A stretch of 64,000 bases of DNA from a virus, in IMG/VR virus record IMGVR_UViG_3300045988_141150. The stretch is one strand, 5' to 3'. This document shows, piece after piece, positions 51,390 through 63,616 of this stretch. The notes under the pieces were generated by a model, which did no database searches, was not told where the DNA came from, and saw only the letters and a program-made list of their open reading frames with translations. The first letter of the stretch is position 1. Each line of letters begins with the position of its first letter. The translations under genes were made by a program, and so were the position numbers.

Positions 51390-51512
51390 ATGTCTATTCA
51401 CGATGGTCTTGTTCTTCTCGCTATCTATGTTGGTGTTATCGGCGCGGGCGCGCTCATCGAATACGTGGAGCACCGCGTAAAGAGAGCGGTTCATCGCAGA
51501 AAGAGAAGTTGA
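51390..51512 (+). CDS. hydrophobic micro-protein (40 aa, single transmembrane helix with basic tail)
   Basis: RBS AAGAGG; MSIHDGLVLLAIYVGVIGAGALIEYVEHRVKRAVHRRKRS; below the ORF-track size cut-off. Confidence 0.4.
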   Translation: MSIHDGLVLLAIYVGVIGAGALIEYVEHRVKRAVHRRKRS

Positions 51513-51530
51513 AAAACTTCTCTTTTTTTA
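51502..51530 (+). terminator. rho-independent terminator
   Basis: agagaagtt-gaaaa-aacttctct then T7. Confidence 0.5.
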
Positions 51531-51540
51531 TAAAAAACAC

Positions 51541-51574
51541 TTGACAAATCCAACAGCCGGTGCTATACTATAAT
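51541..51574 (+). promoter_or_regulatory. consensus promoter driving a transcript of about 140 nt with no convincing ORF
   Basis: TTGACA-17-TATACT/TATAAT; transcript begins tTGTCAAGAGGGG. Confidence 0.5.
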
Positions 51575-51726
51575 TGTCAAGAGGGGAAGAGATAAGTTAC
51601 TTCCCAAAGGGTGTGTGGCAAGTAGCCATTTCCTTTGATAAAACGCTTAGTTGGAGCGACCAGACAGGGCGCGCACTGTCCGCAAAAGTAGAGAATAAAA
51701 AAATTCCAACTTCTCAAAAAAACCTC

Positions 51727-51755
51727 TTGACAGACCCCTTAGAGTGTGATACAAT
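51727..51755 (+). promoter_or_regulatory. consensus promoter flanked by the 9-bp inverted repeat CTCTTGACA ... TGTCAAGAG
   Basis: cCTCTTGACAgacccc..TACAAT..aTGTCAAGAGg. Confidence 0.5.
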
Positions 51756-51759
51756 AAGG

Positions 51760-51813
51760 ATGTCAAGAGGCAGACAGGAGCGAACAACCTCTCCCCAATG
51801 CGTAGTTGGGTGA
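51760..51813 (+). CDS. leaderless micro-ORF MSRGRQERTTSPQCVVG (17 aa)
   Basis: ATG 5 nt after the -10 box with no RBS; one of a family beginning MS(R/G)G. Confidence 0.25.
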   Translation: MSRGRQERTTSPQCVVG

Positions 51814-51859
51814 AGTAAAACAAAATCTCCCTACCGAACAAAAAAGTTCAAAAAACCTC

Positions 51860-51888
51860 TTGACAAACCCCTTAGAGTGTGATACAAT
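51860..51888 (+). promoter_or_regulatory. consensus promoter driving the tRNA-like RNA
   Basis: cCTCTTGACAaacccc-17-TACAAT. Confidence 0.5.
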
Positions 51889-51900
51889 AAGGGTACAGAT

Positions 51901-52012
51901 GGCGGTGAGGTAGAACGGTTCTACTTCCACAAAGATGGCTGAGATACAAAAGTGTCGCTCACTTGGAAACGTTCGCTATTGGAAAATGTGGGTTCAACTC
52001 CCACCACCGCCT
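51901..52012 (+). ncRNA. tRNA-like small RNA (about 112 nt): 7-bp acceptor stem, D-arm with GG, canonical TTCAACT T-arm, but an aberrant 34-nt anticodon region
   Basis: ggcggtg pairs with caccgcc; D-arm gtag-aacggtt-ctac; T-arm gtggg-ttcaact-cccac; own promoter; no ORF; stem ttcca/tggaa (25-29 with 64-68) encloses 34 nt; no CTA triplet in the loop. Confidence 0.35.
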
Positions 52013-52032
52013 CAAAATTTTTTGAAAAAACA

Positions 52033-52061
52033 CTTGACAAATCCAAAAGTAGATGTTATAA
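52033..52061 (+). promoter_or_regulatory. consensus promoter
   Basis: TTGACA-17-TATAAT (tgtTATAAT). Confidence 0.55.
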
Positions 52062-52093
52062 TGTAGATACAATAAGAAAGGGGATAAAAACCA

Positions 52094-52989: not shown

Positions 52990-53004
52990 AATTAAATTTT
53001 TTGA

Positions 53005-53250
53005 ATTAAAAATCTCCCCAAAAATGGGGAGATTTTTTTGTACATTTTATCTATTGACAATCCCAAAACTTCATGGTATAATCGGCCGGCGCGCGAACGG
53101 ACCTGGCGCGCCGAGTTTTTGTCAATAGGCGGGTTGCACAAATTTTTGGGGCAAATCTTTGTGCATAATGTCAATAGACAGAATCCCGAATTGGTGCTAT
53201 ACTATAATCACAGTAAGGGAAGGAAAACCTACCAAACCGGAAAGGGATAA
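53005..53250 (+). repeat. early intergenic cassette, short type: terminator, promoter P1, GC hairpin plus T-tract, GCACAAA box, promoter P2
   Basis: terminator 53009-53040; P1 TTGACA 53045 with TATAAT 53068; hairpin cggcgcgc..gcgcgccg 53078-53104 then agttttt; P2 TAGACA-17-TATACT 53166-53194. Confidence 0.6.
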
Positions 53251-53254
53251 CAAC

Positions 53255-53563
53255 ATGATTAACATTCGTTCTATTCTCAAACTCGCTGAAAATGACGGTC
53301 TGACCCTCAAACATGGCAAGAAGGTCAATTACAAGTCCGGCTGGCAGGTCGCCACTAATGGCGTTGAATGTAAGACCGCCCGCGAAGCCATTAACGCGGT
53401 CAAGGAATATGGCGGCAACTGCGGCGTGTGGTTTGCGAACGGCATTTATTATGTTGACAAGTCCAAGAGGGTGCAGACCAAGAAGCAGGCGCTTGAAATC
53501 GGCAAGGCGTGCAACCAAATCAGTGTATATGGCTGGGCGCGCGGCAATCTGGCTTACTGCTAA
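53255..53563 (+). CDS. hypothetical protein (102 aa)
   Basis: true start at the internal ATG 53255 with AAAGGGA RBS; TAA stop. Confidence 0.5.
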   Translation: MINIRSILKLAENDGLTLKHGKKVNYKSGWQVATNGVECKTAREAINAVKEYGGNCGVWFANGIYYVDKSKRVQTKKQALEIGKACNQISVYGWARGNLAYC

Positions 53564-53573
53564 AAAATTAAAT

Positions 53574-53609
53574 AGAGGGCTTGACAAAACAAGCCCTCTA
53601 TGCTATAAT
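53574..53609 (+). promoter_or_regulatory. promoter whose -35 box sits in the loop of a 7-bp hairpin (agagggc-TTGACAAAACAA-gccctct)
   Basis: TTGACA 53581-86, 17-nt spacer, TATAAT 53604-09. Confidence 0.5.
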
Positions 53610-53641
53610 AAAGGCACAATAAAGGAAAGGGAGAAAACAAC

Positions 53642-53911
53642 ATGGAAATTAAATATGCTCACGAAATGGCGGCTATCGCTAAGGACATCCGCACCGCCAA
53701 GCGCGCCAAAGATACTGCTACGGCCCGCGCCTATCTTGAAGAAAACCTGATGAAAGATATTGAAGACCACGCGGAAAAAGGCGAGAATTATCTGTCTCGC
53801 TGTCTCGTTGCCATTGAAGATGAAGCCGTGAAAGAAGCCTTAAAAAATCTTTTGCGGAATTATGGCTATACAACTTCTTATTCAAACGGCGTTCTCACCG
53901 TAAGGTGGTAA
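53642..53911 (+). CDS. hypothetical protein (89 aa)
   Basis: RBS AAAGGGAG; TAA stop. Confidence 0.55.
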   Translation: MEIKYAHEMAAIAKDIRTAKRAKDTATARAYLEENLMKDIEDHAEKGENYLSRCLVAIEDEAVKEALKNLLRNYGYTTSYSNGVLTVRW

Positions 53912-53916
53912 GGTAA

Positions 53917-53946
53917 AAGAGGGAAAATTTTTCCCTCTTTTTCTAA
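53917..53946 (+). terminator. rho-independent terminator
   Basis: agagggaaaa-ttttt-ccctcttt then ttc. Confidence 0.5.
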
Positions 53947-53954
53947 AAAACTTC

Positions 53955-53983
53955 TTGACAAATCCAAAAGCAGATGTTATAAT
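53955..53983 (+). promoter_or_regulatory. consensus promoter
   Basis: TTGACA-17-TATAAT. Confidence 0.55.
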
Positions 53984-54015
53984 AAAAGCACAATAAAGGA
54001 AAGGGGAATAAATTA

Positions 54016-54087
54016 ATGGAATGTCCTTATTGCGATGGAAAGTGCGGAACACATGCTCAATGCGTTAAATGCGGAAAAGGGAAATAA
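54016..54087 (+). CDS. zinc-ribbon micro-protein MECPYCDGKCGTHAQCVKCGKGK (23 aa)
   Basis: RBS AAGGAAAGGGG; four Cys arranged as CxxC..CxxC; overlaps the RBS of the next gene. Confidence 0.35.
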   Translation: MECPYCDGKCGTHAQCVKCGKGK

Positions 54088-54089
54088 AA

Positions 54090-54446
54090 ATGGGAACGGA
54101 ATTCTTAATTATTGGCGGAATTTTTAGCGCAGTCCTTGCGCTGTTTGTCTGCCTTGTCTGTTGGTGCCGCATGGAAAAGTCTCACCCAATAGTCAGATTG
54201 TTAGTTGGTATCCTTATTTCGTGCGCCATCGGTTATGGCATGACGGGCGCGTTAGTCGCAGAACATAATGCCGATAGAAAAGCATGGAACAACGGCTATT
54301 GCTCCATTTGCGGAAATGAAATGGAATTTGTAAATGCTTCTCATGGTCGGCATGGAACAGTTTATTACTATTGGTATTGCGATGAGTGCGGTCATACGTT
54401 AGAGTTAACTTCTAACTTTGCAAAGGGGGAAACAGATAATGAATGA
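54090..54446 (+). CDS. membrane protein with two transmembrane helices and a C-terminal zinc ribbon (118 aa)
   Basis: internal ATG 54090 with GGGAAATAAAA RBS; CSICGN..CDECGH. Confidence 0.5.
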   Translation: MGTEFLIIGGIFSAVLALFVCLVCWCRMEKSHPIVRLLVGILISCAIGYGMTGALVAEHNADRKAWNNGYCSICGNEMEFVNASHGRHGTVYYYWYCDECGHTLELTSNFAKGETDNE

Positions 54447-54645
54447 AAAAACTATCCCACAGGCTTTGAGAGAACAGGCAGACGCCATTGAAAAGTTAGC
54501 TCAAAGAATTGCGAAAGAAAGCAAGGAATTTCCAGACGAGGAAGACCGCAGAGACGGCGGAGAACTTGCGGACGCTTTATTTGCGATTCAATCAAAGCTC
54601 CGCTATGAGTACTCTTGGATTGCGGAAACCATGTGGGACGTGTAA
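54439..54645 (+). CDS. small acidic protein (68 aa)
   Basis: ATG 54439 overlaps the upstream gene by 8 nt (operon); TAA stop. Confidence 0.5.
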   Translation: MNEKTIPQALREQADAIEKLAQRIAKESKEFPDEEDRRDGGELADALFAIQSKLRYEYSWIAETMWDV

Positions 54646-54646
54646 T

Positions 54647-54688
54647 TTTCAGGCGAGATTTAATTATCTCGCCTGAAAATTTTTTTCA
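54647..54688 (+). terminator. rho-independent terminator
   Basis: ttttcaggcgagat..atctcgcctgaaaa then T7. Confidence 0.55.
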
Positions 54689-54729
54689 AAAAACTATTGA
54701 CAAACTCACCCCGTTGTGGTATTATAATC

Positions 54730-54798
54730 ATGTCAAGAGGAAGTGGTAAGCCTCTTGAAGTAGTGAACAAATTTCTCATACTATGGTTTGCGCGGTAG
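54730..54798 (+). CDS. leaderless micro-ORF MSRGSGKPLEVVNKFLILWFAR (22 aa) that ends in TAG
   Basis: ATG immediately after the -10 box; one of only two early-region reading frames terminated by TAG. Confidence 0.25.
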   Translation: MSRGSGKPLEVVNKFLILWFAR

Positions 54799-54830
54799 CC
54801 GATAATTACCGCGCCCTTTCTATTTCATTT

Positions 54831-54848
54831 TTGTTAAAATTTTAACAA
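54831..54848. promoter_or_regulatory. third palindrome TTGTTAAAATTTTAACAA (variant of the 50477 and 50899 site)
   Basis: perfect 18-bp palindrome; same half-site TTGTTAAAA. Confidence 0.35.
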
Positions 54849-54893
54849 TGATTGTTCGGCCGGGCGCGCACGGACCACGCGCCCGGAATTTCA

Positions 54894-54922
54894 ATTATAT
54901 CACAGGGCCAGCAATTTGTCAA
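54894..54922 (-). promoter_or_regulatory. reverse-strand consensus promoter firing leftward into the GC hairpin
   Basis: plus strand reads ATTATA-17-TGTCAA, which is TTGACA-17-TATAAT on the minus strand; the only minus-strand signals in a plus-strand region. Confidence 0.5.
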
Positions 54923-55048
54923 GCAAAAAGTCGCGAAAATTTGCATAAATTATTTTTCCCAATTTTGTGCGATCCGTCAATAGACAAATCTCTAAGAGTG
55001 TGTTATATTATAATTGTTCCAAGGGAACAGAAAGATGAGGTAAATAAA

Positions 55049-55255
55049 ATGACTAACTACAACATTCACTCTTTTATCAAGACCCAGCTTCTCCATGCCG
55101 AGCAGATGCCCAGCGATGCCGAACTTTTCAAGCATAACGCCTATGGCGCAGTCTCGTGGGAGTTATATCGCACGAATGACCATGCCCTTGAAGAACAGTG
55201 GGCAAATGTATATGCTCCCAAGTTCGACGCCATCATCAGAAATTATCATTTCTGA
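55049..55255 (+). CDS. hypothetical protein (68 aa)
   Basis: internal ATG 55049 with GAGG RBS; TGA stop. Confidence 0.5.
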   Translation: MTNYNIHSFIKTQLLHAEQMPSDAELFKHNAYGAVSWELYRTNDHALEEQWANVYAPKFDAIIRNYHF

Positions 55256-55261
55256 TAAAAA

Positions 55262-55296
55262 GGGCTTGACAAAAGCCCTTTCGCATGATATAATAC
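55262..55296 (+). promoter_or_regulatory. promoter with its -35 box in a hairpin loop (aagggc-TTGACAAA-gccctt)
   Basis: TTGACA 55268-73, 17-nt spacer, TATAAT 55291-96. Confidence 0.5.
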
Positions 55297-55324
55297 ATAT
55301 ACAATCAAGAAAGAGGTAAAACAA

Positions 55325-55663
55325 ATGCTTATCAAAATGTCAAAACACGCCACGCAAGACCGCATTGACCGCCTGCTCTTCATCTACGATAATGTAGGAA
55401 TCGGCGAACCGTATATCGACAGTGTTGAGGACGATGTTCTCTACACTATCACTACAACAGGTATTCTTCTTGTTCGTAGTGCTAAGGACGGAACACTCAT
55501 TACAGCCTATATCGCGGATATTGATAAAATCACCGCAATATGGAGAAATAAGCACGGCGAGCGCCCTATGCCTGATAACCTTTACAAGCGGGTTCTCGCA
55601 AACGCGTTCTTTGATAGAATGTGGAATAAGCAAGAAAAGGAGAAAAAGAAAAATGTTCGGTAA
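55325..55663 (+). CDS. hypothetical protein (112 aa)
   Basis: RBS AAGAGG; TAA stop; first gene of a 3-gene operon. Confidence 0.55.
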   Translation: MLIKMSKHATQDRIDRLLFIYDNVGIGEPYIDSVEDDVLYTITTTGILLVRSAKDGTLITAYIADIDKITAIWRNKHGERPMPDNLYKRVLANAFFDRMWNKQEKEKKKNVR

Positions 55664-56006
55664 GAAAAAGAAGCCTTTCAATCCATATGAAAAACGCGCG
55701 GACGATGCGCTTTATGAAGTATGGGAAACGCGCGACCGCCTTTATGAAAAGACAAGGCAAGTCATTACGCGCGTAGGGGTGATTAACCTTTACCCCAATG
55801 GCGCTGACCGCGAGAAAGCCGTCTCTGACGCCGAAGAAGCGAAGCACGCTTTGCTTGTAGCTATTGGAGCATACGACACCGCGCGCATGGAATACAATGA
55901 TTATGTTGAAAAAAACGCGGAAAAGTTTGACAACCATAAAGAAAAATGGACTACCACGAGCCATGAAATTATCGAATGGGCTTACAAATACTATTATAAA
56001 GGGTGA
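55653..56006 (+). CDS. hypothetical protein (117 aa)
   Basis: internal ATG 55653 with AAGGAG RBS; overlaps the upstream gene by 11 nt. Confidence 0.5.
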   Translation: MFGKKKKPFNPYEKRADDALYEVWETRDRLYEKTRQVITRVGVINLYPNGADREKAVSDAEEAKHALLVAIGAYDTARMEYNDYVEKNAEKFDNHKEKWTTTSHEIIEWAYKYYYKG

Positions 56007-56011
56007 ATAAA

Positions 56012-56245
56012 ATGAAGATTACTATTAAGAATAATAAACTCGCCCCCTTTGGAGAAATTGCCAAGGGCGTAGTTTTCAAAGACCCGACCGCCGAAGATTA
56101 TTACATCAAAATCGCCGCAGAGGTCGATGAAAATACCGGTGATGATGAATGGAATTGTCTCCATTTGGACAATTACGCTCTCGACTGTTTCGGCCTAAAA
56201 GATATGGTTCTCCCCATCTACGATGCGGAACTGATTATTCCCTGA
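56012..56245 (+). CDS. hypothetical protein (77 aa)
   Basis: ATG 56012 with AAAGGG RBS; the ORF-track start at 56003 is GTG. Confidence 0.45.
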   Translation: MKITIKNNKLAPFGEIAKGVVFKDPTAEDYYIKIAAEVDENTGDDEWNCLHLDNYALDCFGLKDMVLPIYDAELIIP

Positions 56246-56358
56246 TAAAACCGGACTTTGTCCGCGTTTCTCTCCCCCTTTCCTATGGCTTTGGCGGTTG
56301 TACCCCAAAAAACAACCGCCACCCTTTCCAAAAAATAAATTGAATGGAGATAAAAAAG

Positions 56359-56535
56359 ATGAAGAATGAGAAACTTAGTGAGGTTGTTAAAACTGTGTGC
56401 TTGATGGCACGATACGGCATTCAGAAGGGATATCCCTCGGGCGGGACAGAAGCAAATGACATGATTGAACGTGTCGCGCTTCTTGAAAACAAGCTCGTTC
56501 CCATTCTCGTCGACCTTGAAGCCGTAGAAAACTAA
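56359..56535 (+). CDS. hypothetical protein (58 aa)
   Basis: ATG 56359 with GGAG RBS; the alternative ATG at 56344 lacks an RBS. Confidence 0.4.
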   Translation: MKNEKLSEVVKTVCLMARYGIQKGYPSGGTEANDMIERVALLENKLVPILVDLEAVEN

Positions 56536-56757
56536 ATGAAAAATCACCCAATTTGGGTGATTTTTTTTGTTTACTTTCACTATTGACAAAGTTCCTTGAA
56601 TGTGATAAAATCGTCGGCGCGCGGACGATTGTGGCGCGCCGAGTTTTTTGTCAAGAGGTAAGTTCAACAAATTTTCGCACGAATTTTTGTGTAAAATGCC
56701 AATAGACAAAAATCCTATAATGTGGTAAGATGTATACAACAAATAGAGGGGGCTAAA
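56536..56757 (+). repeat. early intergenic cassette, short type (terminator, P1, GC hairpin plus T-tract, GCACGAA box, P2)
   Basis: terminator 56540-68; P1 TTGACA 56583 with TAAAAT 56606; hairpin cggcgcgc..gcgcgccg 56615-41 then agtttttt; P2 TAGACA-17-TAAGAT 56703-31; same stem sequence as the copy at 53078. Confidence 0.6.
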
Positions 56758-57105
56758 ATGATGGTTGCATGGTATTGGTTAATTCTCGCGTTTTGCGTGG
56801 GTATTGCGTTCGCTACAATCACTGATGAGTGGTATGATTGGGAAAACACTTTAACTGACATTCTTGCATGGATTGCTCTGATTATCGGCTTCGTTCCTTT
56901 GACTTTCTATTGCATATTTCTCAAACTGACGGTTTTCCACCCCACTACGCGAGAGAAGTTTGAGGAAGTCAAAAAGGTTAGCGAAGAAACTTGTAAAATC
57001 TATCGAGTATGCGGAAACGTGTATTTCTGGATTGACCTTAAAGCAACAAAAATCTATAACAAGGTATTCTTTATTCGAGTAAAGGAAACTGAAAACAATG
57101 GGTGA
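56758..57105 (+). CDS. membrane protein (115 aa, two transmembrane helices)
   Basis: internal ATG 56758 with AGAGGGGG RBS. Confidence 0.5.
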   Translation: MMVAWYWLILAFCVGIAFATITDEWYDWENTLTDILAWIALIIGFVPLTFYCIFLKLTVFHPTTREKFEEVKKVSEETCKIYRVCGNVYFWIDLKATKIYNKVFFIRVKETENNG

Positions 57106-57256
57106 AAGAGTTAATGTTTTATGTTTAATTGAGTGGTTGCGCGCTTGGACGGAAACCTTTAATGACTGCGCTTGTTGTCCTTTGTCCAACGAGTGCGACC
57201 GCCGGAGCATCAGTTATGAATGTGCTGATGACCTATTAGAAAAATTAAAGGAGTAA
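57098..57256 (+). CDS. Cys-rich micro-protein (52 aa)
   Basis: ATG overlaps the end of the upstream gene; 6 Cys; weak RBS. Confidence 0.25.
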   Translation: MGERVNVLCLIEWLRAWTETFNDCACCPLSNECDRRSISYECADDLLEKLKE

Positions 57257-57271
57257 ATTAAAAACTCTCTA

Positions 57272-57306
57272 TTGACATTTTTGTTATAATATGATATTAT
57301 TATAAT
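57272..57306 (+). promoter_or_regulatory. consensus promoter
   Basis: TTGACA-17-TATTAT/TATAAT. Confidence 0.5.
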
Positions 57307-57329
57307 AGAAAAAGGAAAGGGTGATAATA

Positions 57330-57803
57330 ATGAATACAATTCTTCTGTTCGCGCTTTGCACGGCGGTGAATGTTATTCTGTCAACTATCAAAAGCATTTT
57401 GACTGTTAAGGGCGGAAAACTTAGCGCGTCTTTCATCAACGCTCTCACTTATGGTTTTTATTCCTATGTGATTGTGCTGACTTCTGCGGACGGTATGCCT
57501 ATTTGGTTAAAAATGGCTATTACTGCCATTTGTAATTTCGTAGGCGTTTACCTTGTCAAGTGGATTGAAGAAAAAGCGCGTAAAGATAAATTATGGAAAG
57601 TCGAGCTTACCGTACCGACAAGATACACTAATACCATTGACTTTGACTTACATGATGTTCCACATTCTTACATTGAATTGAGCGATAAACATACGCTTTT
57701 CAATTTTTACTGCGCGACCCAAAAGGAAAGCGCAAAAGTCAAGGCTATCGCTAATCAGTATGAAGCAAAATATTTTGTTGCGGAAAGCAAAAATCTTGAA
57801 TAA
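57330..57803 (+). CDS. membrane protein (157 aa)
   Basis: ATG 57330 with AAAGGGTG RBS; multiple transmembrane helices; TAA stop. Confidence 0.5.
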   Translation: MNTILLFALCTAVNVILSTIKSILTVKGGKLSASFINALTYGFYSYVIVLTSADGMPIWLKMAITAICNFVGVYLVKWIEEKARKDKLWKVELTVPTRYTNTIDFDLHDVPHSYIELSDKHTLFNFYCATQKESAKVKAIANQYEAKYFVAESKNLE

Positions 57804-57837
57804 AGGGCTTGACAAAAGCCTTTTATTCTGCTATACT
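57802..57837 (+). promoter_or_regulatory. promoter with its -35 box in a hairpin loop (aaagggc-TTGACAAA-gcctttt)
   Basis: TTGACA 57809-14, 17-nt spacer, TATACT 57832-37. Confidence 0.5.
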
Positions 57838-57867
57838 TAACGTATCAAGTGAAAGGGGAAAATTAAA

Positions 57868-58320
57868 ATGAAAGCTACTGGTATCGTTCGCAGAATTGAT
57901 GACCTTGGACGTGTGGTCATTCCGAAAGAGATTCGCCGGACTTTGAAGATCCGCGAGGGCGACCCGCTTGAAATCTTCCTTGGAGAGGACAACTGCGTTT
58001 GCTTCAAGAGGTATTCAGTGCTTGGTTCGTTGACCGAAGAGGCTCTGCGAACCGCTATTACAATGGCGTCAAATTCCGGTCTACGCCCTATCGCAATTTA
58101 TGATACTACTGTAAAACTGCGGGGCATGGAAAACTTTTCGGCCTATGTCCCGACCCAGTGGGAATTTGAAAGAAAGCCATTTGTTTTCAATAATACCTAT
58201 GGCGTTTATCCGGTTTGCGCGGACGGCGACCTTGTGGGTTATGCGGTTTGCGACCAGCAAGACATGGGGTGTGAAATGGACATGATTGTTCGCTACCTCA
58301 GCATTGTGTCTGAACGTTAA
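57868..58320 (+). CDS. abrB-like: AbrB/SpoVT-family swapped-hairpin transcriptional regulator (150 aa)
   Basis: N-terminus MKATGIVRRIDDLGRVVIPKEIRRTLKIREGDPLEIF closely matches the AbrB/SpoVT N-domain (MKSTGIVRKVDELGRVVIPIELRRTLGI...); about 100-aa C-terminal extension. Confidence 0.7.
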   Translation: MKATGIVRRIDDLGRVVIPKEIRRTLKIREGDPLEIFLGEDNCVCFKRYSVLGSLTEEALRTAITMASNSGLRPIAIYDTTVKLRGMENFSAYVPTQWEFERKPFVFNNTYGVYPVCADGDLVGYAVCDQQDMGCEMDMIVRYLSIVSER

Positions 58321-58327
58321 AAAAATA

Positions 58328-58367
58328 GCACAAGGGGCTTGACAAAACAAGTCCCTTGTGCTATAAT
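58328..58367 (+). promoter_or_regulatory. promoter with its -35 box in the loop of a 9-bp hairpin (gcacaaggg..cccttgtgc)
   Basis: TTGACA 58339-44, 17-nt spacer, TATAAT 58362-67. Confidence 0.5.
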
Positions 58368-58396
58368 AAAACCATCAAAGGAAAGGGGCAAATAAA

Positions 58397-58573
58397 ATGG
58401 AAATTGAAAAGAAATTCCAGGTTGATTATAGCGGTAAAAATCCTTGGGACCAGTATTACGACAATCGGGTTAATTTTGATTCCGAAGAAAAAGCCGATGC
58501 TTTTATCCAAAAGTTGATGGAAGATGAAAATATCTATCAAATTTTCAAAACCATTACTGCCAGATACAGATAA
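58397..58573 (+). CDS. hypothetical protein (58 aa)
   Basis: RBS AAAGGGG; TAA stop; below the ORF-track size cut-off. Confidence 0.45.
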   Translation: MEIEKKFQVDYSGKNPWDQYYDNRVNFDSEEKADAFIQKLMEDENIYQIFKTITARYR

Positions 58574-58811
58574 AATTTGAGGTGAAAATTCACCTCATTT
58601 TTTTGGTTATTTTGCCTATTGACAAAAATCCAATAGTGTGATAAAATGGCCGGCCGTTTACGTATGCCACGGCCGGAACTTCAATTATACCAGAAGCCAG
58701 CAAATTTGTCAATCGGCAAAATGCACAAAAATCTAATTAGTTTTTTTCCCAAAATGTGCTTGACAAAATCCAGCAGATGCGCTATAATGTATTTAGAAAG
58801 AGGTGAAAAAC
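58574..58811 (+). repeat. early intergenic cassette, long type: terminator, P1, GC hairpin, reverse promoter, GCACAAA box, TTTTTTCCC box, P2
   Basis: terminator 58576-58606; P1 TTGACA 58619 with TAAAAT 58642; hairpin ccggccg..cggccgg 58650-76; reverse promoter 58684-58712; P2 58760-58788. Confidence 0.6.
58684..58712 (-). promoter_or_regulatory. reverse-strand perfect consensus promoter converging on P1 across the hairpin
   Basis: plus strand ATTATA-17-TGTCAA; the predicted minus transcript is hairpin plus UUUUAU (about 40 nt). Confidence 0.5.
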
Positions 58812-58970
58812 ATGGATAATTTCAAGAAAGCCACTGTAAAAGATTATACTGCTTGGGATTTGAATTGTAGAAACATTTGCCCTCACGATAAATCTTCTAA
58901 TAAACTGGAAAAGCGTATCAAGCGCAAGGCTCGCAGAAGTCTTAAACAAAATTTGAAAAAAAAGTATTGA
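58812..58970 (+). CDS. basic micro-protein (52 aa)
   Basis: RBS AAGAGGTG; its stop codon overlaps the -35 box of the next promoter. Confidence 0.4.
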   Translation: MDNFKKATVKDYTAWDLNCRNICPHDKSSNKLEKRIKRKARRSLKQNLKKKY

Positions 58971-58995
58971 CAAAATACAGCAAATGCGCTATAAT
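58967..58995 (+). promoter_or_regulatory. consensus promoter
   Basis: TTGACA-17-TATAAT (gcgcTATAAT). Confidence 0.55.
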
Positions 58996-59027
58996 GTAAG
59001 TACAGTAAAGGAAAGGGGTAAACACCA

Positions 59028-59528
59028 ATGAAAATCACTTACATCAAGTCTCACGTTGTGACCACTCGACGCTCTATCAACTTTGACATGGACGGCACTA
59101 TCGCTGACCTCTACGGCGTCAAGGATTGGCTCGCGCTTCTCCGTTCGGAAAATCCCACACCCTATCGGACTGCCGCTCCTATGTGCGATATGGCTGAATT
59201 GAATGAGGTTTGCGAACTTCTCCGCGCCGAGGGTTGGGAAATCAACATCATCACTTGGCTTTCCAAAGATTCGAGCGAGGAATACAAAAACCTCGTGCGT
59301 AAAGCAAAGCGTGCGTGGCTTGAAGAACAGGGCTTCCACTATGACCACTTCCACGGCGTCCAGTATGGCGCGACCAAAGCCGACAGCGTGCGCGACCGCT
59401 ATGACGTGTCCATCTTGGTTGACGATAATGAAAAGGTTCGGAATGGTTGGCACTTGGGCGCTACCATTGACCCGACCGCAGTAAACATTATCGAAAAACT
59501 TTCGGAACTTTTGGAGAAAAGGGCTTGA
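59028..59528 (+). CDS. HAD-superfamily 5'(3')-deoxyribonucleotidase-like phosphatase (166 aa)
   Basis: motif I INFDMDGTIADLYG (DxDGT); size and layout of the NT5C-type dNMP phosphatases common in phages. Confidence 0.55.
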   Translation: MKITYIKSHVVTTRRSINFDMDGTIADLYGVKDWLALLRSENPTPYRTAAPMCDMAELNEVCELLRAEGWEINIITWLSKDSSEEYKNLVRKAKRAWLEEQGFHYDHFHGVQYGATKADSVRDRYDVSILVDDNEKVRNGWHLGATIDPTAVNIIEKLSELLEKRA

Positions 59529-59553
59529 CAAAGCCCTACTCCAATGGTATAAT
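59520..59553 (+). promoter_or_regulatory. promoter with its -35 box in a hairpin loop (agggc-TTGACAA-agccct)
   Basis: TTGACA 59525-30, 17-nt spacer, TATAAT 59548-53. Confidence 0.5.
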
Positions 59554-59582
59554 AAATACATCAAATGAAAGGGGAAAATAAA

Positions 59583-59792
59583 ATGTTTGTTCTTTTAATT
59601 CTGCTGTCTCTCACAATTTCGTTCCTGCTTATCTCTGGTTTAGTTTGGCTTCTCTGTTGGCTTCTCCCTGCCATTGGTATCACCGCAATCGGCACTTTCA
59701 CCATCGTGTTCTCGTGGAAGCTGGCACTCGCAATTTGGATTATTCTCCTGCTTCTGAGCACTATCTTCCCGAGCGGTAGTAATAGGGGGTGA
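59583..59792 (+). CDS. small membrane protein (69 aa, two transmembrane helices)
   Basis: ATG 59583 with AAAGGGG RBS. Confidence 0.5.
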   Translation: MFVLLILLSLTISFLLISGLVWLLCWLLPAIGITAIGTFTIVFSWKLALAIWIILLLLSTIFPSGSNRG

Positions 59793-59795
59793 AAA

Positions 59796-59939
59796 ATGAT
59801 GCCTTATTTTTGGCTTACTCTTGGCGTTCTCGCCAAAGTGACCGGACGAACTGCCGGTGGTAATTATCGCTATGAAACGGTTGTCTCTAAGGAAATCGGA
59901 CTTGTGACCGCAGACTGGGTCAATACTCATCTGCTGTAA
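59796..59939 (+). CDS. micro-protein (47 aa) with a hydrophobic N-terminus
   Basis: RBS AGGGGGTG; TAA stop. Confidence 0.3.
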   Translation: MMPYFWLTLGVLAKVTGRTAGGNYRYETVVSKEIGLVTADWVNTHLL

Positions 59940-59957
59940 AAGAAAGGGGAAACAAAA

Positions 59958-60215
59958 ATGAAAGTAAATTTTGGCACTAAGGGTCAGGTTCAGATTATTA
60001 ACATTCTCAGCGGTGGCACATTCACCGACCCGCGCACCAATGGTAACGGTATGGGAATGTATCTCAAAATTGACAGCCATAACAACACGCCGTTTGTCCG
60101 GTCGAGAGGTTCGCAGTTTTGCTATGCTGTGAATCTTGAAACGGGTCAGATTCGCGAGTTCCCGCGCGAAAAGATGGTAACGCCAGTCAAGACCGAGGTC
60201 AATGTAATTGGCTAA
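59958..60215 (+). CDS. hypothetical protein (85 aa)
   Basis: RBS AAAGGGG; TAA stop. Confidence 0.55.
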   Translation: MKVNFGTKGQVQIINILSGGTFTDPRTNGNGMGMYLKIDSHNNTPFVRSRGSQFCYAVNLETGQIREFPREKMVTPVKTEVNVIG

Positions 60216-60451
60216 AAGAAAATCTCCCCAAAAATGGGGAGATTTTTTTGTTTACTTTGACTATTGACAAAGTTCCTTGAATGTGATATAATGGGCCGGC
60301 CGTTTCCGCGCGCTACGGCCGGAATTCACCATTATACACCCTGCCAGCATTTTTGTCAAGAGAAATTTCGCACAAATTTCAATTTTATTTTTTCCCGTTA
60401 TTTGGTCATTTTACCAATAGACAAATCAAGACCAATCTGTTATACTACATA
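60216..60451 (+). repeat. early intergenic cassette, long type; its terminator is identical to the one at 53009..53040
   Basis: terminator 60219-50; P1 60264-92; hairpin ccggccg..cggccgg 60296-60322; reverse promoter 60331-59; P2 TAGACA-17-TATACT 60418-46. Confidence 0.6.
60331..60359 (-). promoter_or_regulatory. reverse-strand consensus promoter
   Basis: plus strand ATTATA-17-TGTCAA. Confidence 0.5.
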
Positions 60452-60571
60452 ATGTCAGGAGGAAAGAGTAAGACCTACGGAAAGGCAGTTCCCTTGACCA
60501 TTATACCAGAAGCCGACACAAGGAATGTTCCAAGCGTGGCATGCCGAACAAACTTTCAAAAAAAAGTTTGA
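60452..60571 (+). CDS. leaderless micro-ORF MSGGKSKTYGKAVPLTIIPEADTRNVPSVACRTNFQKKV (39 aa)
   Basis: ATG 5 nt after the -10 box; related in sequence to the micro-ORF at 62767. Confidence 0.3.
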   Translation: MSGGKSKTYGKAVPLTIIPEADTRNVPSVACRTNFQKKV

Positions 60572-60579
60572 AAAACCCC

Positions 60580-60608
60580 TTGACAAACCGCTCGACTTAT
60601 GGTATAAT
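60580..60608 (+). promoter_or_regulatory. consensus promoter
   Basis: TTGACA-17-(tgg)TATAAT. Confidence 0.55.
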
Positions 60609-60639
60609 GAATACATCAAATGAGAGAGGTAAAAACAAG

Positions 60640-60669
60640 ATGACTTCTAATGCTCGCCCACCGCCTTAA
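60640..60669 (+). CDS. 9-codon micro-ORF MTSNARPPP ending Pro-Pro-Pro-stop (candidate leader peptide)
   Basis: RBS AGAGGTAAAAACAAG; a tandem related copy follows at 60721. Confidence 0.25.
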   Translation: MTSNARPPP

Positions 60670-60720
60670 AAACTGATTTGATTTCTTGACTTAAAGATTG
60701 TAGATAGAGGTATAAACAAG

Positions 60721-60753
60721 ATGTATAGTAATAAAGCTCGCGACCGCCCCTAA
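60721..60753 (+). CDS. 10-codon micro-ORF MYSNKARDRP ending Pro-stop
   Basis: RBS AGAGGTATAAACAAG; same context as the 60640 micro-ORF. Confidence 0.25.
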   Translation: MYSNKARDRP

Positions 60754-60771
60754 AAAAATTCGCAAAACCTA

Positions 60772-60800
60772 TTGACAACCTGCTCCGCATATGATATAAT
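60772..60800 (+). promoter_or_regulatory. consensus promoter
   Basis: TTGACA-17-(tga)TATAAT. Confidence 0.55.
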
Positions 60801-60851
60801 AACTACATCAAAGACAAGGACAGTCTCAAAAACCAGAAAGGAATTGATACT

Positions 60852-61226
60852 ATGGCTACTTCTACTACTAAGAAGCTCACTAAGCGTGACCGTTTCGAGG
60901 CTCTGCTCAAAATGTCCGAGGTTCAGGCAAATCCTGATATGGTGGCGTTCATCGAGCATGAGATTGAACTGCTCGCCAAGAAGAACGCGGGCGACAAGAA
61001 GCCCACGGCTAAGCAGATGGAGAACGACGCCGTGAAGCAGGTCATTCTGGACGAGATGATCGCAAACCCTGACAAGCTCTACACTGTAACCGAACTCATC
61101 AAAGGCGTTCCCGAACTTGCGGAGTATTCCAATCAGCGCGTTTCCGCTCTTCTGCGCCAGATGATTGACGCCAACGCGGTTGTCAAGACGGTTGACAAGC
61201 GCAAGTCCTACTTCTCCCTCGCGTGA
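60852..61226 (+). CDS. hypothetical protein, paralogue A (124 aa)
   Basis: RBS AAAGGAATTGATACT; about 70% identical to the protein at 63203..63580. Confidence 0.55.
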   Translation: MATSTTKKLTKRDRFEALLKMSEVQANPDMVAFIEHEIELLAKKNAGDKKPTAKQMENDAVKQVILDEMIANPDKLYTVTELIKGVPELAEYSNQRVSALLRQMIDANAVVKTVDKRKSYFSLA

Positions 61227-61233
61227 GGGCAAG

Positions 61234-61262
61234 GGCAGGGGATAAAAAAAATCCCCTGCCCT
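61234..61262 (+). terminator. hairpin with an A8 loop (gggcaggggat-A8-tcccctgccc), atypical terminator
   Basis: follows the paralogue gene; no 3' U-tract. Confidence 0.3.
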
Positions 61263-61274
61263 ATAAAAAAACTG

Positions 61275-61303
61275 TTGACAAACCAATAGCAAAGTGCTAT
61301 ACT
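61275..61303 (+). promoter_or_regulatory. consensus promoter
   Basis: TTGACA-17-(tgc)TATACT. Confidence 0.55.
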
Positions 61304-61325
61304 ATTATCAGAGGTTGAGAGAACG

Positions 61326-61355
61326 ATGGTAAATCTCAATCTACTTTTCCAATAG
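61326..61355 (+). CDS. upstream micro-ORF MVNLNLLFQ terminated by TAG inside the RBS of the exonuclease gene
   Basis: the TAG at 61353-55 overlaps the AGGAG RBS of the gene starting at 61367. Confidence 0.25.
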   Translation: MVNLNLLFQ

Positions 61356-61366
61356 GAGATGGTAAA

Positions 61367-62143
61367 ATGGGTATTGATAGGCGCAAAAACTACGGCATTA
61401 TGCTGGACACGGAAACCGCAAACACCATTCAAGACGGCGATAAGCTGGATATGTCAAATGTGCTTCCATACGACTTCGGCTGGGCGGTCATTGATTCCAA
61501 GGGAAATGTTTATGAAACTCATTCTTTTGTGAATCGCGATATTTTCTGCTACGAGCGCGACCTCATGCAGTCTGCCTACTACGCCGACAAAATTCCCCGC
61601 TATGTCGAGGATATTAAGAACGGCACTCGCATTATGGCTGACCTTTACGAAATTCGTCTTGCATTCTGTGAATGTGTCGAGCGTTATAACTGCTCTTTTG
61701 TCTGCGCTCATAATATGCGGTTCGACCTTAACGCCTGTAATAACGCGCAAAGATGGGATACGAAAAGCAAGTATCGCTATTTTTTCCCCTACGGCCTTGA
61801 AGTTTGGGACACGCTGAAAATGGCGCGACAGGTTATTGGCAAAATGCCCACTTACCGCGACTATTGCGAAAAGAATGGCTACAAGACCAAAAACGGACAG
61901 CTCCGTTTTACAGCAGAAATTCTTTACCGCTTTATCAGCGGTGAAGATAGTTTTGATGAGTCCCACACGGGACTTGAAGATGTCCTCATTGAAGTTGAGA
62001 TTTTGCGCTATTGCGTCCGACAGCACAAGAAAATGGAAAAGTCCCTTTTCAAAAATTCCACGGTGGAACGCCCTAAGCCTACCGAGTTTCAGCGCGCGCT
62101 CATGCGAAACATTAAGGAAAATCCTATGATAAACATGAGCTAA
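61367..62143 (+). CDS. DEDDh 3'-5' exonuclease (DnaQ / RNase T-like, 258 aa)
   Basis: Exo I motif IMLDTETAN, Exo II motif FVCAHNMRFDLN, Exo III motif SHTGLEDVLIEVEIL. Confidence 0.6.
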   Translation: MGIDRRKNYGIMLDTETANTIQDGDKLDMSNVLPYDFGWAVIDSKGNVYETHSFVNRDIFCYERDLMQSAYYADKIPRYVEDIKNGTRIMADLYEIRLAFCECVERYNCSFVCAHNMRFDLNACNNAQRWDTKSKYRYFFPYGLEVWDTLKMARQVIGKMPTYRDYCEKNGYKTKNGQLRFTAEILYRFISGEDSFDESHTGLEDVLIEVEILRYCVRQHKKMEKSLFKNSTVERPKPTEFQRALMRNIKENPMINMS

Positions 62144-62149
62144 AAAAAT

Positions 62150-62190
62150 AGGGAATAGGGCTTGACAAGTCCTATTCCCTATGGTATAAT
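62150..62190 (+). promoter_or_regulatory. promoter with its -35 box in the loop of a 10-bp hairpin (agggaatagg..cctattccct)
   Basis: TTGACA 62162-67, 17-nt spacer, TATAAT 62185-90. Confidence 0.5.
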
Positions 62191-62219: not shown

Positions 62220-62498
62220 ATGACTGCTAAACAAGTCCTTTTTGTAGTCCCCGATGAAAATGACCCTCACATGGGCATTTTAATCAACCATGACTATGTT
62301 ATCTGCGCTGAATGCGGTGGCGTCTTTGAAGTCGATGAGGTTTTCATCATCAAGACCTATGACGTTTGGGTAAACTTTGAAGACGAAATTGCGGACGAGC
62401 TTGACCTGCTGACCGCAAAAGACATTGGCAAAGAGCTGAATAGCAAGGGAGAATCCGGTCGTTACGCATGGAAAGAAGCAATTAAGAGGGAGTTTTGA
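62220..62498 (+). CDS. hypothetical protein (92 aa) with a CxxC pair
   Basis: internal ATG 62220 with AAGAGGTG RBS; TGA stop. Confidence 0.5.
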   Translation: MTAKQVLFVVPDENDPHMGILINHDYVICAECGGVFEVDEVFIIKTYDVWVNFEDEIADELDLLTAKDIGKELNSKGESGRYAWKEAIKREF

Positions 62499-62520: not shown

Positions 62521-62766
62521 GCTGGAATAAATAAAAAACTGCCCAAAAATGGGCAGTTTTTTTTTGTCTATTTTGCCTATTGACAAATGCGGATTTTTGT
62601 GATAAAATGGTCGGCCCGCTAACGCCCAAAGCGGGCCGAACTCACCATTATACCACGCCCCGCCAATTTTGTCAAGAGAAAAGTTGCACAAAAATGAAAA
62701 AAATTTTTTCCCGTAATTTGGCTATTCTGTCAATTGTATTCTGTGGGCAATCTGCTATAATAGATA
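62521..62766 (+). repeat. early intergenic cassette, long type
   Basis: terminator 62536-66; P1 TTGACA 62579 with TAAAAT 62602; hairpin tcggcccgc..gcgggccga 62610-38; reverse promoter 62646-74; TTTTTTCCC box; P2 with extended -10 tgcTATAAT 62756-61. Confidence 0.6.
62646..62674 (-). promoter_or_regulatory. reverse-strand consensus promoter
   Basis: plus strand ATTATA-17-TGTCAA. Confidence 0.5.
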
Positions 62767-62865
62767 ATGTCAGGAGGGAACAGTGAATTGCCGAACGGCT
62801 TCGCTGATGGGTGTGATAACTCGGTAACTGACCCGTTTTCAAAGAAATTTGAAATTCCCTCTTGA
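62767..62865 (+). CDS. leaderless micro-ORF MSGGNSELPNGFADGCDNSVTDPFSKKFEIPS (32 aa)
   Basis: ATG 6 nt after the -10 box; related to the micro-ORF at 60452. Confidence 0.3.
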   Translation: MSGGNSELPNGFADGCDNSVTDPFSKKFEIPS

Positions 62866-63202: not shown

Positions 63203-63580
63203 ATGTCTACTTCTACTACTAAGAAGCTCACTAAGCGCGACCGTTTCGAGGCTCTGCTCAAGATGTCCGAGGTTCAGGCTGACCCCGCCATGGTTGAGTT
63301 TATCAATCACGAGATTGACCTGCTGGCTCGCAAGAATGCCGGTGATAAGAAGCCGACCGCGAATCAGATTGCCAACGATGGTTACAAGGACATTATCTTT
63401 GCCGAGCTGTCCGCCAATCCTGACAAGCTCTACACTGTGACCGAACTCATTAAGACTGTGGACGGTTTGGGTGACCTCTCCAATCAGCGCGTCTCCGCTC
63501 TTCTGCGTCAGATGATTGAAGCGAACGGTGTCGAGAAGATTGTCGACAAGCGCAAGTCCTATTTCCGTCTCGCCCACTGA
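63203..63580 (+). CDS. hypothetical protein, paralogue B (125 aa)
   Basis: internal ATG 63203 with the same RBS context as 60852; about 70% identical to paralogue A. Confidence 0.55.
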   Translation: MSTSTTKKLTKRDRFEALLKMSEVQADPAMVEFINHEIDLLARKNAGDKKPTANQIANDGYKDIIFAELSANPDKLYTVTELIKTVDGLGDLSNQRVSALLRQMIEANGVEKIVDKRKSYFRLAH

Positions 63581-63586
63581 TTCAGC

Positions 63587-63616
63587 GGGAGCGCCTAAAA
63601 AAAATTAGGCGCTCCC
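63587..63616 (+). terminator. hairpin with an A6 loop (gggagcgcctaa-A6-ttaggcgctccc)
   Basis: same architecture as the hairpin after paralogue A. Confidence 0.3.

Follow-up and report, generated by a model that had tools for sequence, protein, structure and literature searches.

On the 64,000-nucleotide stretch of viral DNA recorded in IMG/VR as IMGVR_UViG_3300045988_141150 (hereafter the window), we found that in six of the 39 strong promoters of the early region (49.9-64 kb) the -35 box is spanned by an inverted repeat. The initial annotation had claimed that one and the same sequence forms a stem-loop at the end of a gene and the physical start of the next promoter, and our analysis supports this. 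We favor the reading, with a probability of roughly 0.55, that the six elements (H1 to H6, Table 1) are composite cassettes resembling the promoter-early stem-loops (PeSLs) of T4-like phages: the hairpin, when read into from upstream, would end or attenuate the transcript of the upstream gene, and the same DNA would start the next one.

The Hairpins Are Non-random and Conserved as Structures

The pattern of -35-spanning hairpins is non-random. The other 33 promoters of the early region have -35-spanning stems of at most 6 bp. For a null, we cross-paired flanks and spacers taken from promoters without a hairpin; stems of 7 bp or more arose in 1.7% of cases, which gives a binomial probability of 5e-5 for six or more such promoters out of 39, while 0 of 3,000 flank-shuffle trials yielded the observed five stems of 9 bp or longer. 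Shuffling within promoters and swapping spacers were rejected as nulls, because they retain both the complementary G-rich/C-rich composition and the common core and are therefore over-conservative at the 7-bp threshold (means of 1.4-1.8); cross-pairing of non-hairpin promoters and higher stem thresholds were used in their place. An Rfam search of 49.5-64 kb at E <= 1 gave no hit at the hairpins, and no hit elsewhere in that interval exceeded a gathering score.

To follow the elements through related phages, we used 22 loci retrieved via the neighboring exonuclease-like gene, i.e., independently of the hairpins. In these loci, 103 of 786 promoters, representing 79 distinct sequences, have a -35-spanning stem of 7 bp or more, counts which, like all those across relatives, are phylogenetically non-independent. 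Compensatory changes are found in several of the hairpins. Orthologues of H1 exchange AGAGGGC/GCCCTCT for ATAGGGC/GCCCTAT and vice versa, those of H4 show double changes (GCACAAGGGG/CCCTTGTGC versus TCACAAAGGA/TCCTTTGTGA; compensatory changes in L006, L010, and L015), and in H6 of L013 the pair AATAGGG/TCCTATT has become AACAGGG/TCCTGTT. The G.U pair of H6 is retained in 14 relatives, and H5 is likewise kept. In a gap-free alignment of 16 sequences of the H1/H4 class, both sides have changed at 5 of 17 pairs (24 cells), the covariation score was reached in 0 of 500 shuffles, and sliding the 3' partner by 1-3 columns lowers the pairing from 94% to 29-51%. In more distant relatives, whose exonuclease is 47-63% identical, other stems (GGGGTTGA/TCAACCCC) occupy the same place with the same geometry. 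The compensatory changes argue firmly that the relatives retain the hairpins as structure.

The mismatches point to the strand that folds. We determined that in family hairpins with at least nine Watson-Crick pairs, the internal transition mismatches read as G.U on the plus strand in 18 distinct cases and as A.C in none (41:0 over all instances), next to four further distinct mismatches of other kinds (eight over all instances). In addition, the plus-strand fold is more stable than the minus-strand fold for H3, H4, and H6. The G.U polarity and the more stable plus-strand fold together indicate that the folded species is plus-strand RNA. As transcripts of the embedded promoter start downstream of the hairpin, this RNA would have to come from read-in from the upstream gene.

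The Hairpins Take the Place of Separate Terminators

All 82 distinct hairpin-promoter contexts follow a co-directional open reading frame (ORF). The gap from the stop codon to the -35 box has a median of 9 nt at hairpin promoters and is at most 30 nt in 98% of them, compared to 33% of other promoters. A separate hairpin with a T-run within 70 nt upstream was detected at only 1 of the 82 hairpin promoters versus 112 of the 354 others (Fisher test, 5e-11); in the window alone, the figures are 0 of 6 versus 11 of 16 (p = 0.012). The junction at the MECPYC gene provides both states: in the window it consists of a classical terminator followed by a separate promoter, and in relatives L003, L006, L010, and L012 of AGAAAAAGGGCTTgacaaaAAGCCCTTTTTCT, which combines a -35-in-loop hairpin with a genuine T-run. 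Hairpin promoters and separate terminators exclude one another and, at this one junction, are interchangeable. The six hairpins also have what is expected of an intrinsic terminator up to the end of the stem, i.e., a GC-rich stem with a short loop just past a co-directional gene.

Anatomy of the Six Elements

The inverted repeats reported in the initial annotation are all present, each overlapping a promoter, and the -10 box lies at the canonical 17 nt in all six. Every hairpin promoter consists of TTGACA, a 17-nt spacer, and TATAAT or TATACT with a TGn-extended -10, matching 11-12 of the 12 consensus positions. The shape of the hairpins had to be revised. They had been described as GC stems of 5-10 bp with the whole -35 box exposed in the loop TTGACAAA; RNAfold predicts stems of 7-17 bp (dG from -12.9 to -29.2 kcal/mol, z from -3.4 to -10.8), in which CTT(G) of the -35 box is paired and just (G)ACA(AAA) remains unpaired, in loops of only 3-6 nt. 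The upstream gene is co-directional in each case; taken together, the repeats begin 0-8 nt past its stop codon or overlap it, and at H1, H2, H4, and H6 the stem starts 3-8 nt past the stop codon. An A-run lies upstream of the hairpins, and the Shine-Dalgarno (SD) sequence and ATG of the downstream gene follow about 30 nt past the -10 box. From the stop codon of one early gene to the ribosome-binding site of the next, the cassette measures about 50-70 bp.

Some genes have no intergenic space at all before the next promoter: for genes 59028-59528 and 58812-58970, the stop codon (59526-59528 and 58968-58970, respectively) is the TGA inside the TTGACA that follows.

Table 1. Stem-loops and embedded promoters H1-H6 (positions in the window, all on the + strand; dG in kcal/mol) and an example from a cultured phage.
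Element	Stem-loop	5' arm / loop / 3' arm	Stem and energetics	Position and tail	Promoter	-35, spacer, -10	Gene driven
H1	53572-53601	ATAGAGGGCTTG / ACAAAA / CAAGCCCTCTAT	12 bp; dG -20.9; z -6.8	8 nt past stop codon of gene 53255-53563	53581-53609	TTGACA, 17 nt, TGcTATAAT	53642-53911
H2	55259-55281	AAAGGGCTT / GACAA / AAGCCCTTT	9 bp; dG -12.9; z -3.4	3 nt past stop codon of gene 55049-55255; tail from GC core TTTCGCAT	55266-55294	TTGACA, 17 nt, TGaTATAAT	55325-55663
H3	57798-57828	GAATAAAGGGCTT / GACAA / AAGCCTTTTATTC	13 bp, one G.U; dG -16.9; z -6.4	stop codon TAA (57801-57803) within 5' arm; U-rich tail UUUUAUUCU past GC core, the sole such tail among the six	57809-57837	TTGACA, 17 nt, TGcTATACT	57868-58320 (AbrB/antitoxin-like)
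H4	58325-58364	ATAGCACAAGGGGCTTG / ACAAAA / CAAGTCCCTTGTGCTAT	17 bp, one G.U; dG -29.2; z -10.8	4 nt past stop codon of gene 57868-58320; 3' arm reaches into TAT of -10	58339-58367	TTGACA, 17 nt, TGcTATAAT	58397-58573
H5 (nested)	59511-59544	TTGGAG aaa AGGGCTT / GACA / AAGCCCT a CTCCAA	inner stem 7 bp, outer stem 6 bp; dG -19.1; z -5.2	5' half is coding sequence of gene 59028-59528, whose stop TGA lies in TTGACA; no U-tract	59525-59553	TTGACA, 17 nt, TGgTATAAT	59583-59792
H6	62148-62182	ATAGGGAATAGGGCTT / GAC / AAGTCCTATTCCCTAT	16 bp, one G.U; dG -23.9; z -7.1	4 nt past stop codon of exonuclease-like gene 61367-62143	62162-62190	TTGACA, 17 nt, TGgTATAAT	62220-62498
Saphexavirus example	L143 3003-3040			Enterococcus phage vB_OCPT_CCS2, ON113173.1 ~12398-12435			

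How the Cassettes Would Work

The fit between hairpin and promoter can be read from the arrangement of the two. Upstream of the -35 box, a G-rich 5' arm with CTTG is complementary to the start of the spacer (CAAG and a C-rich 3' arm), and it is because of this complementarity that the -35 box is predicted to sit at the top of the hairpin. The top would suit the sequence-constrained -35 box, as a terminator is free of pairing constraint there. In turn, the 3' arm, together with a U-run if there is room for one, would lie in the 17-nt spacer, where the promoter has almost no sequence constraint. The hairpin is absent from the embedded promoter's own transcripts and present only in read-in RNA from upstream, in which it would set the 3' end of the upstream message by termination or by attenuation of read-through. 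It may thereby insulate the next strong promoter and limit the build-up of transcription along the array.

An extension of this scheme, which we hold to be decidedly unlikely, has both promoter hexamers co-opted: the -35 box would serve as loop and TATAAT(AAA) as a weak-hybrid release site replacing the U-tract, after which the released RNA polymerase would be recaptured with sigma. It concerns the copies whose long stems end within 0-3 nt of the -10 box (H1, H4, and H6), where the polymerase might be handed from gene to gene while the RNA is cut. Local recycling by RNA polymerase that slides after termination has reportedly been described by Kang et al. 2020 and Harden et al. 2020.

Two further mechanisms were considered and rejected. 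According to a roadblock model, a promoter-bound polymerase would stall the incoming one, which the hairpin would then release. The open complex covers about -55 to +20, and, judged from such known footprints, the model fails on geometry because the incoming polymerase would halt with the hairpin not yet transcribed. As a pause signal, sigma-dependent pausing at the -10 box was dismissed as well: such pauses occur about 10-12 nt past a -10-like element (lambda PR'), and the pause site is too far from the stem.

Do the Hairpins Terminate Transcription?

The initial annotation regarded each element as a terminator and a promoter in one. The part of this claim that stands is that the hairpins occupy the place of separate terminators; the terminator itself is the weaker part, and the following observations weigh against it. 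Five of the six hairpins have no U-tract on the plus strand, and a consensus terminator scan called none of the six on the plus strand, although it called H1 and H3 on the minus strand. Across the family, at least 4 T in the 6 nt past the GC core are found in only 16% of hairpins, compared to 32% in the wide set. The RNA:DNA hybrids predicted for the 9 nt past the stems range from -6.1 to -10.6 kcal/mol, compared to -1.6 to -4.8 kcal/mol at classical terminators in the window, with the background averaging -10.9 (nearest-neighbor values of Sugimoto 1995). TTTT in the spacer is just about 1.5-2-fold enriched at hairpin relative to non-hairpin promoters, with 24% versus 16% in the family, which is not significant, and 20% versus 10% in the wide set (p = 0.0015). 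By contrast, a T-run on the opposite strand, i.e., an A-run upstream (criterion: at least 4 T in 6), accompanies 76% of the family hairpins and 64% of those in the wide set. The strand polarity is also less clear outside the family, as the wobble asymmetry in the wider IMG/VR set is weak (13 G.U to 8 A.C, p = 0.19), and the non-independence of counts across relatives weighs on the same side. With U-tracts mostly absent and the predicted hybrid tails only moderately weak, efficient canonical termination is not expected at H1, H2, H5, and H6, and "attenuator" may be the better word for these hairpins. That RNA polymerase stops at the hairpins, above all at the five U-less copies, is what we infer, with indirect support from the mutual exclusion with separate terminators and from versions in relatives that do bear a U-tract.

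Two other hairpins of the early region belong here as observations in their own right. At ~61228-61262 and ~63588-63616, following the paralogous genes 60852-61226 and 63203-63580, lie gene-end hairpins that are GC-rich, have loops of A6-A8, and lack a U-tract; neither overlaps a promoter, the next -35 box being 12-13 nt downstream. Gene-end hairpins lacking a U-tract are hence not restricted to those that overlap promoters.

Alternative Explanations

The frequent lack of a U-tract lends some weight to a post-transcriptional role, in which the hairpins would block 3'->5' exonucleases and so stabilize the upstream message once it has been cleaved downstream, or would, in the long forms (H1, H4, and H6, with 12-17 bp), be processing sites for a double-strand RNase. 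We consider this unlikely, if deserving of serious attention. It would agree with a structure that is conserved and plus-strand specific in the family, yet mostly U-less, with the U-less gene-end hairpins that do not overlap promoters (~61228-61262 and ~63588-63616), and with long stems that fill the whole spacer and leave no room for a tail. RNase III processing hairpins of comparable kind, U-less, conserved, and expected to leave a protective 3' stem, occur between early genes of T7 and SP82; these belong to long polycistronic RNAs without a promoter per gene, and they are longer, with internal loops. The hairpins described here differ in being fused to promoters and in that some stems have only 7-9 bp. 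Measured against the roughly two turns (~20 bp) of double-stranded RNA expected of an RNase III-type hairpin, H4 (17 bp) and H6 (16 bp) come close, while stems of only 7-10 bp, as in H2, H5, and many relatives, fall below the length of typical substrates. A 3' end must, moreover, still be made nearby, and the exclusion of separate terminators (1/82 versus 112/354), together with the interchange at the MECPYC junction, fits a terminator replacement better than an added stabilizer. A PeSL stem-loop, in addition, did terminate in vivo (PMC2839356).

The opposite-strand T-runs raise another possibility, namely that the hairpins are minus-strand or bidirectional terminators directed against antisense transcription, from the minus promoters with -35 boxes at 54922, 58712, 60359, and 62675 or from beyond the window. 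On the minus strand a T-run follows each stem (e.g., AUUUUUUUA at H4 and AUUUUUUUA at H6), with the family and wide-set frequencies given above, the scan calls H1 and H3 there, and minus-strand consensus promoters do lie downstream. We nevertheless find this quite improbable. The G.U pairs of H3, H4, and H6 and all 18 distinct transition mismatches of the family become A.C on that strand, there are no minus-strand genes in 49.5-64 kb, and each minus promoter first meets a GC-rich hairpin and a bidirectional terminator. The A-run itself, in the form of AAAA within 12 nt upstream of the -35 box, is also present in about 50-55% of hairpin-less promoters, and PeSLs have an A-run there too (PMC2839356). 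Because it occurs in both, the A-run is probably for the most part a promoter feature, UP-like and AT-rich, which also holds the TAA stop codon.

A by-product explanation, in which the stem has little function and recombination homogenizes the core of a mobile, self-propagating promoter cassette, appears improbable. The chimeric and missing cassettes of close relatives are in line with it, as is the proposal that PeSLs are recombination vehicles (PMC2839356). It leaves unexplained, however, the compensatory changes in the non-shared outer stems and the G.U polarity, the different stems at the same position in divergent relatives, and the 13-fold excess of complementary over non-complementary arms in unrelated phages. 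Highly improbable, in our estimation, is a role of the double-stranded DNA, as a -35-overlapping operator for a dimeric regulator or as a cruciform switched by supercoiling. The palindromes do overlap the -35 box of very strong promoters, and the paralogous copies have the core GGGCTTGACAA...GCCC in common. Conserved half-sites at a fixed spacing, as expected of an operator, were nevertheless not found among the hairpins: the spacing of the GGGC/GCCC half-sites varies over 7-12 nt, with loops of 3-6 nt and more, the outer stems differ wholly between copies while remaining complementary, and more distant relatives have other arms. The transition mismatches of the family are, besides, G.T only and confined to one strand.

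Comparison With Known Systems

A literature search on terminator/promoter overlap brought up only the PeSL papers as relevant. PeSLs were described in the T4-like phages RB49/phi1, PST/T4, and nt-1/KVP40 (Arbiol et al. 2010, PMC2839356; Comeau et al. 2014, PMC4122927). They are composed of an AT-rich stretch with the upstream stop codon, a consensus sigma-70 promoter, a stable stem-loop, and the SD/ATG, the stem being polyG-polyC with G-T pairs, and they fall into five positional subclasses, in one of which the stem-loop overlaps the -35 box (PMC2839356, PMC4122927). The elements are thus not a newly seen way of combining a terminator with a promoter. One PeSL stem-loop cut lacZ expression in vivo like rrnB T1 (PMC2839356), and recombination between PeSLs, which have been proposed as recombination vehicles, shuffles ORFans (PMC2839356, PMC4122927).

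The likeness extends to many details. Both kinds of element run from the upstream stop codon through a near-consensus promoter and a stem-loop to the SD and start of a small gene, both occur in many copies among small ORFan genes, and both show indels and recombination within the element. The nt-1 consensus A3-4G3-loop-C3T3-4 resembles the AAAGGGC...GCCCTTT found here, and the window's "terminator then promoter" units fit the PST/nt-1 type. The features that define PeSLs, structural as well as evolutionary, are all found in the six elements. The phage does not belong to the T4-like myovirus lineage, which we regard as a circumstance of discovery and not as part of the mechanism. There are also differences. 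The phage has TAG-recoded late genes, sigma-A-type promoters with TGn-extended -10 boxes, and strong SD sites; the -35-in-loop arrangement is its only overlapping form, whereas the stem-loops of RB49/phi1 lie mostly between -35 and -10 or over -10; and several of its stems are far longer (12-17 bp), filling the spacer up to the -10 box. Terminator and promoter activity and mini-circles were tested in PeSLs, whereas the activity of the present elements is predicted.

Compared to classical intrinsic terminators, the hairpins have in common the GC-rich stem (7-17 bp), the short loop, and the position just past a co-directional stop codon, and in H3 and many relatives also the U-run after the stem. 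They differ in that a U-tract is missing from the transcribed strand in five of the six and the T-run lies on the other strand. As for SPO1, its host-takeover module and the terminal-repeat arrays of Herelleviridae hold dense short early genes with near-consensus sigma-A promoters of their own, with an A-rich stretch ahead and usually a terminator too. The early array described here is likewise dense, with a near-consensus sigma-A promoter for each short gene; the difference is that terminator and promoter are separate in SPO1. We had considered the SPO1 module as a source of experimentally mapped examples and rejected it, as none of its early promoters that were examined has a convincing -35-spanning hairpin (stems of at most 6 bp, except for one of 8 bp).

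Cassettes as Units of Recombination

Gene content varies between close relatives, and the elements themselves contain indels, replacements, and recombination joints, as PeSLs do. The entire H3 cassette upstream of the orthologue of 57868-58320 is missing from L013, where stop codon and ribosome-binding site are fused. In L004 and L005, upstream of the orthologue of gene 55325-55663, the 5' arm of H1 is joined to the 3' arm of another hairpin within the common GGGCTTGACAA, and the intervening genes are deleted. In L001, in turn, a classical terminator is joined to a hairpin 3' arm. Judging from these joints, the cassettes act as indel and recombination units. The common core GGGCTTGACAA...GCCC would make them sites of homologous recombination, by which small early genes could be deleted, inserted, or swapped.

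Occurrence in Other Phages

Similar hairpins are not limited to close relatives. A loose pattern, GGGC-TTGACAA-N0-6-GYCC...TAYAAT, matched more than 120 IMG/VR stretches, and the stem extends outward by at least 3 bp in 59 of 147 matches, compared to 1.6% expected. With a stricter complementary pattern we obtained 66 IMG/VR stretches versus five for a composition-matched non-complementary control. Both results speak for selection on the complementarity. A T-rich tail is present in the spacer of 32-39% of these hairpins in other IMG/VR phages, and many of the matches are terminators of the textbook kind, their U-run lying in the spacer, e.g., GGGCttgacaaGCCCtttttttacgacTATAAT. Among cultured phages, Enterococcus phages of the genus Saphexavirus carry AAGGGGCTTGACAAAAGCCCTTTTTTGTGTTATAAT between two co-directional coding sequences, with a genuine T-run in the spacer (Table 1). 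Dozens of Enterococcus phage records match, at 2-5 places each in the records listed.

The Phage and Its Early-Gene Array

The window consists of two unlike parts, and strand, genetic code, and base composition all change near 49.5 kb. The part at 1-49.5 kb has about 29% GC and genes on the minus strand. With TAG read as sense, its ORFs of at least 150 codons total 15,132 aa and the longest open frame is 2,760 codons, compared to 6,276 aa and 555 codons under code 11, and a single minus-strand ORF of 2,752 aa holds 80 in-frame TAGs. From these reading frames, the late/structural part is clearly TAG-recoded. It encodes terminase and portal proteins, which both match generic PHROGs only. No tRNA genes, and hence no suppressor tRNA, were found in the window.

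The part at 49.5-64 kb holds the array of early genes of this large, uncultivated phage. It has about 43% GC and the standard code, with some 30 small genes (25-258 aa), all on the plus strand. Of the five early genes scanned against PHROGs, three gave no match. The 39 strong sigma-70/sigma-A-type promoters are packed into 14 kb, and promoter-like sites in the early region number 78, versus 27.5 in shuffles. Close relatives are IMG/VR contigs of 97-197 kb; a megablast search of the region against cultured phages gave no DNA match. Among cultured phages, the exonuclease-like protein has its nearest relatives in Enterococcus phages (39% identity), and the host probably belongs to the Firmicutes.

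Several other features of the array were observed. Between 51541 and 52062, four consensus promoters (-35 boxes at 51541, 51727, 51860, and 52034) lie within 500 bp, those at 51727 and 51860 being near-identical repeats, and no gene was called at 51512-52093. Two tiny ORFs with good SD sites, MTSNARPPP* (60640-60669) and MYSNKARDRP* (60721-60753), resemble proline-rich leader peptides, with consensus promoters upstream and gene 60852-61226 downstream. A non-coding unit of 190-250 bp is present in six copies (53000-53215, 54640-55025, 56530-56745, 58570-58800, 60210-60460, and 62525-62775). It consists, in order, of a bidirectional terminator, a consensus plus-strand promoter, a GC-rich hairpin (GGCCGG... 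/ GGCGCGC...), a minus-strand promoter, and a TAGACA-type plus-strand promoter. The perfect minus-strand consensus promoters (-35 boxes at 54922, 58712, 60359, and 62675) point at the GC-rich hairpin, with only a few tens of bp between the convergent promoters. Rfam had no match for these units, which probably represent what the initial annotation counted as the first way of joining terminator and promoter.

Implications

If the PeSL-like reading is right, composite promoter/terminator cassettes, so far found only in T4-like phages of Gram-negative hosts, would extend to an unrelated, TAG-recoded, gut-type family, and also to cultured Enterococcus phages and many other uncultivated phages. The conserved, covarying hairpins that lack a U-tract could be used to probe how much of one Firmicutes-type RNA polymerases need. 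In annotation, the elements would mark both transcription-unit boundaries and the recombination joints of shuffled early genes. For compact early arrays, they suggest a general design rule, by which the -35 box is placed in the terminator loop and the 3' arm or U-run in the promoter spacer.

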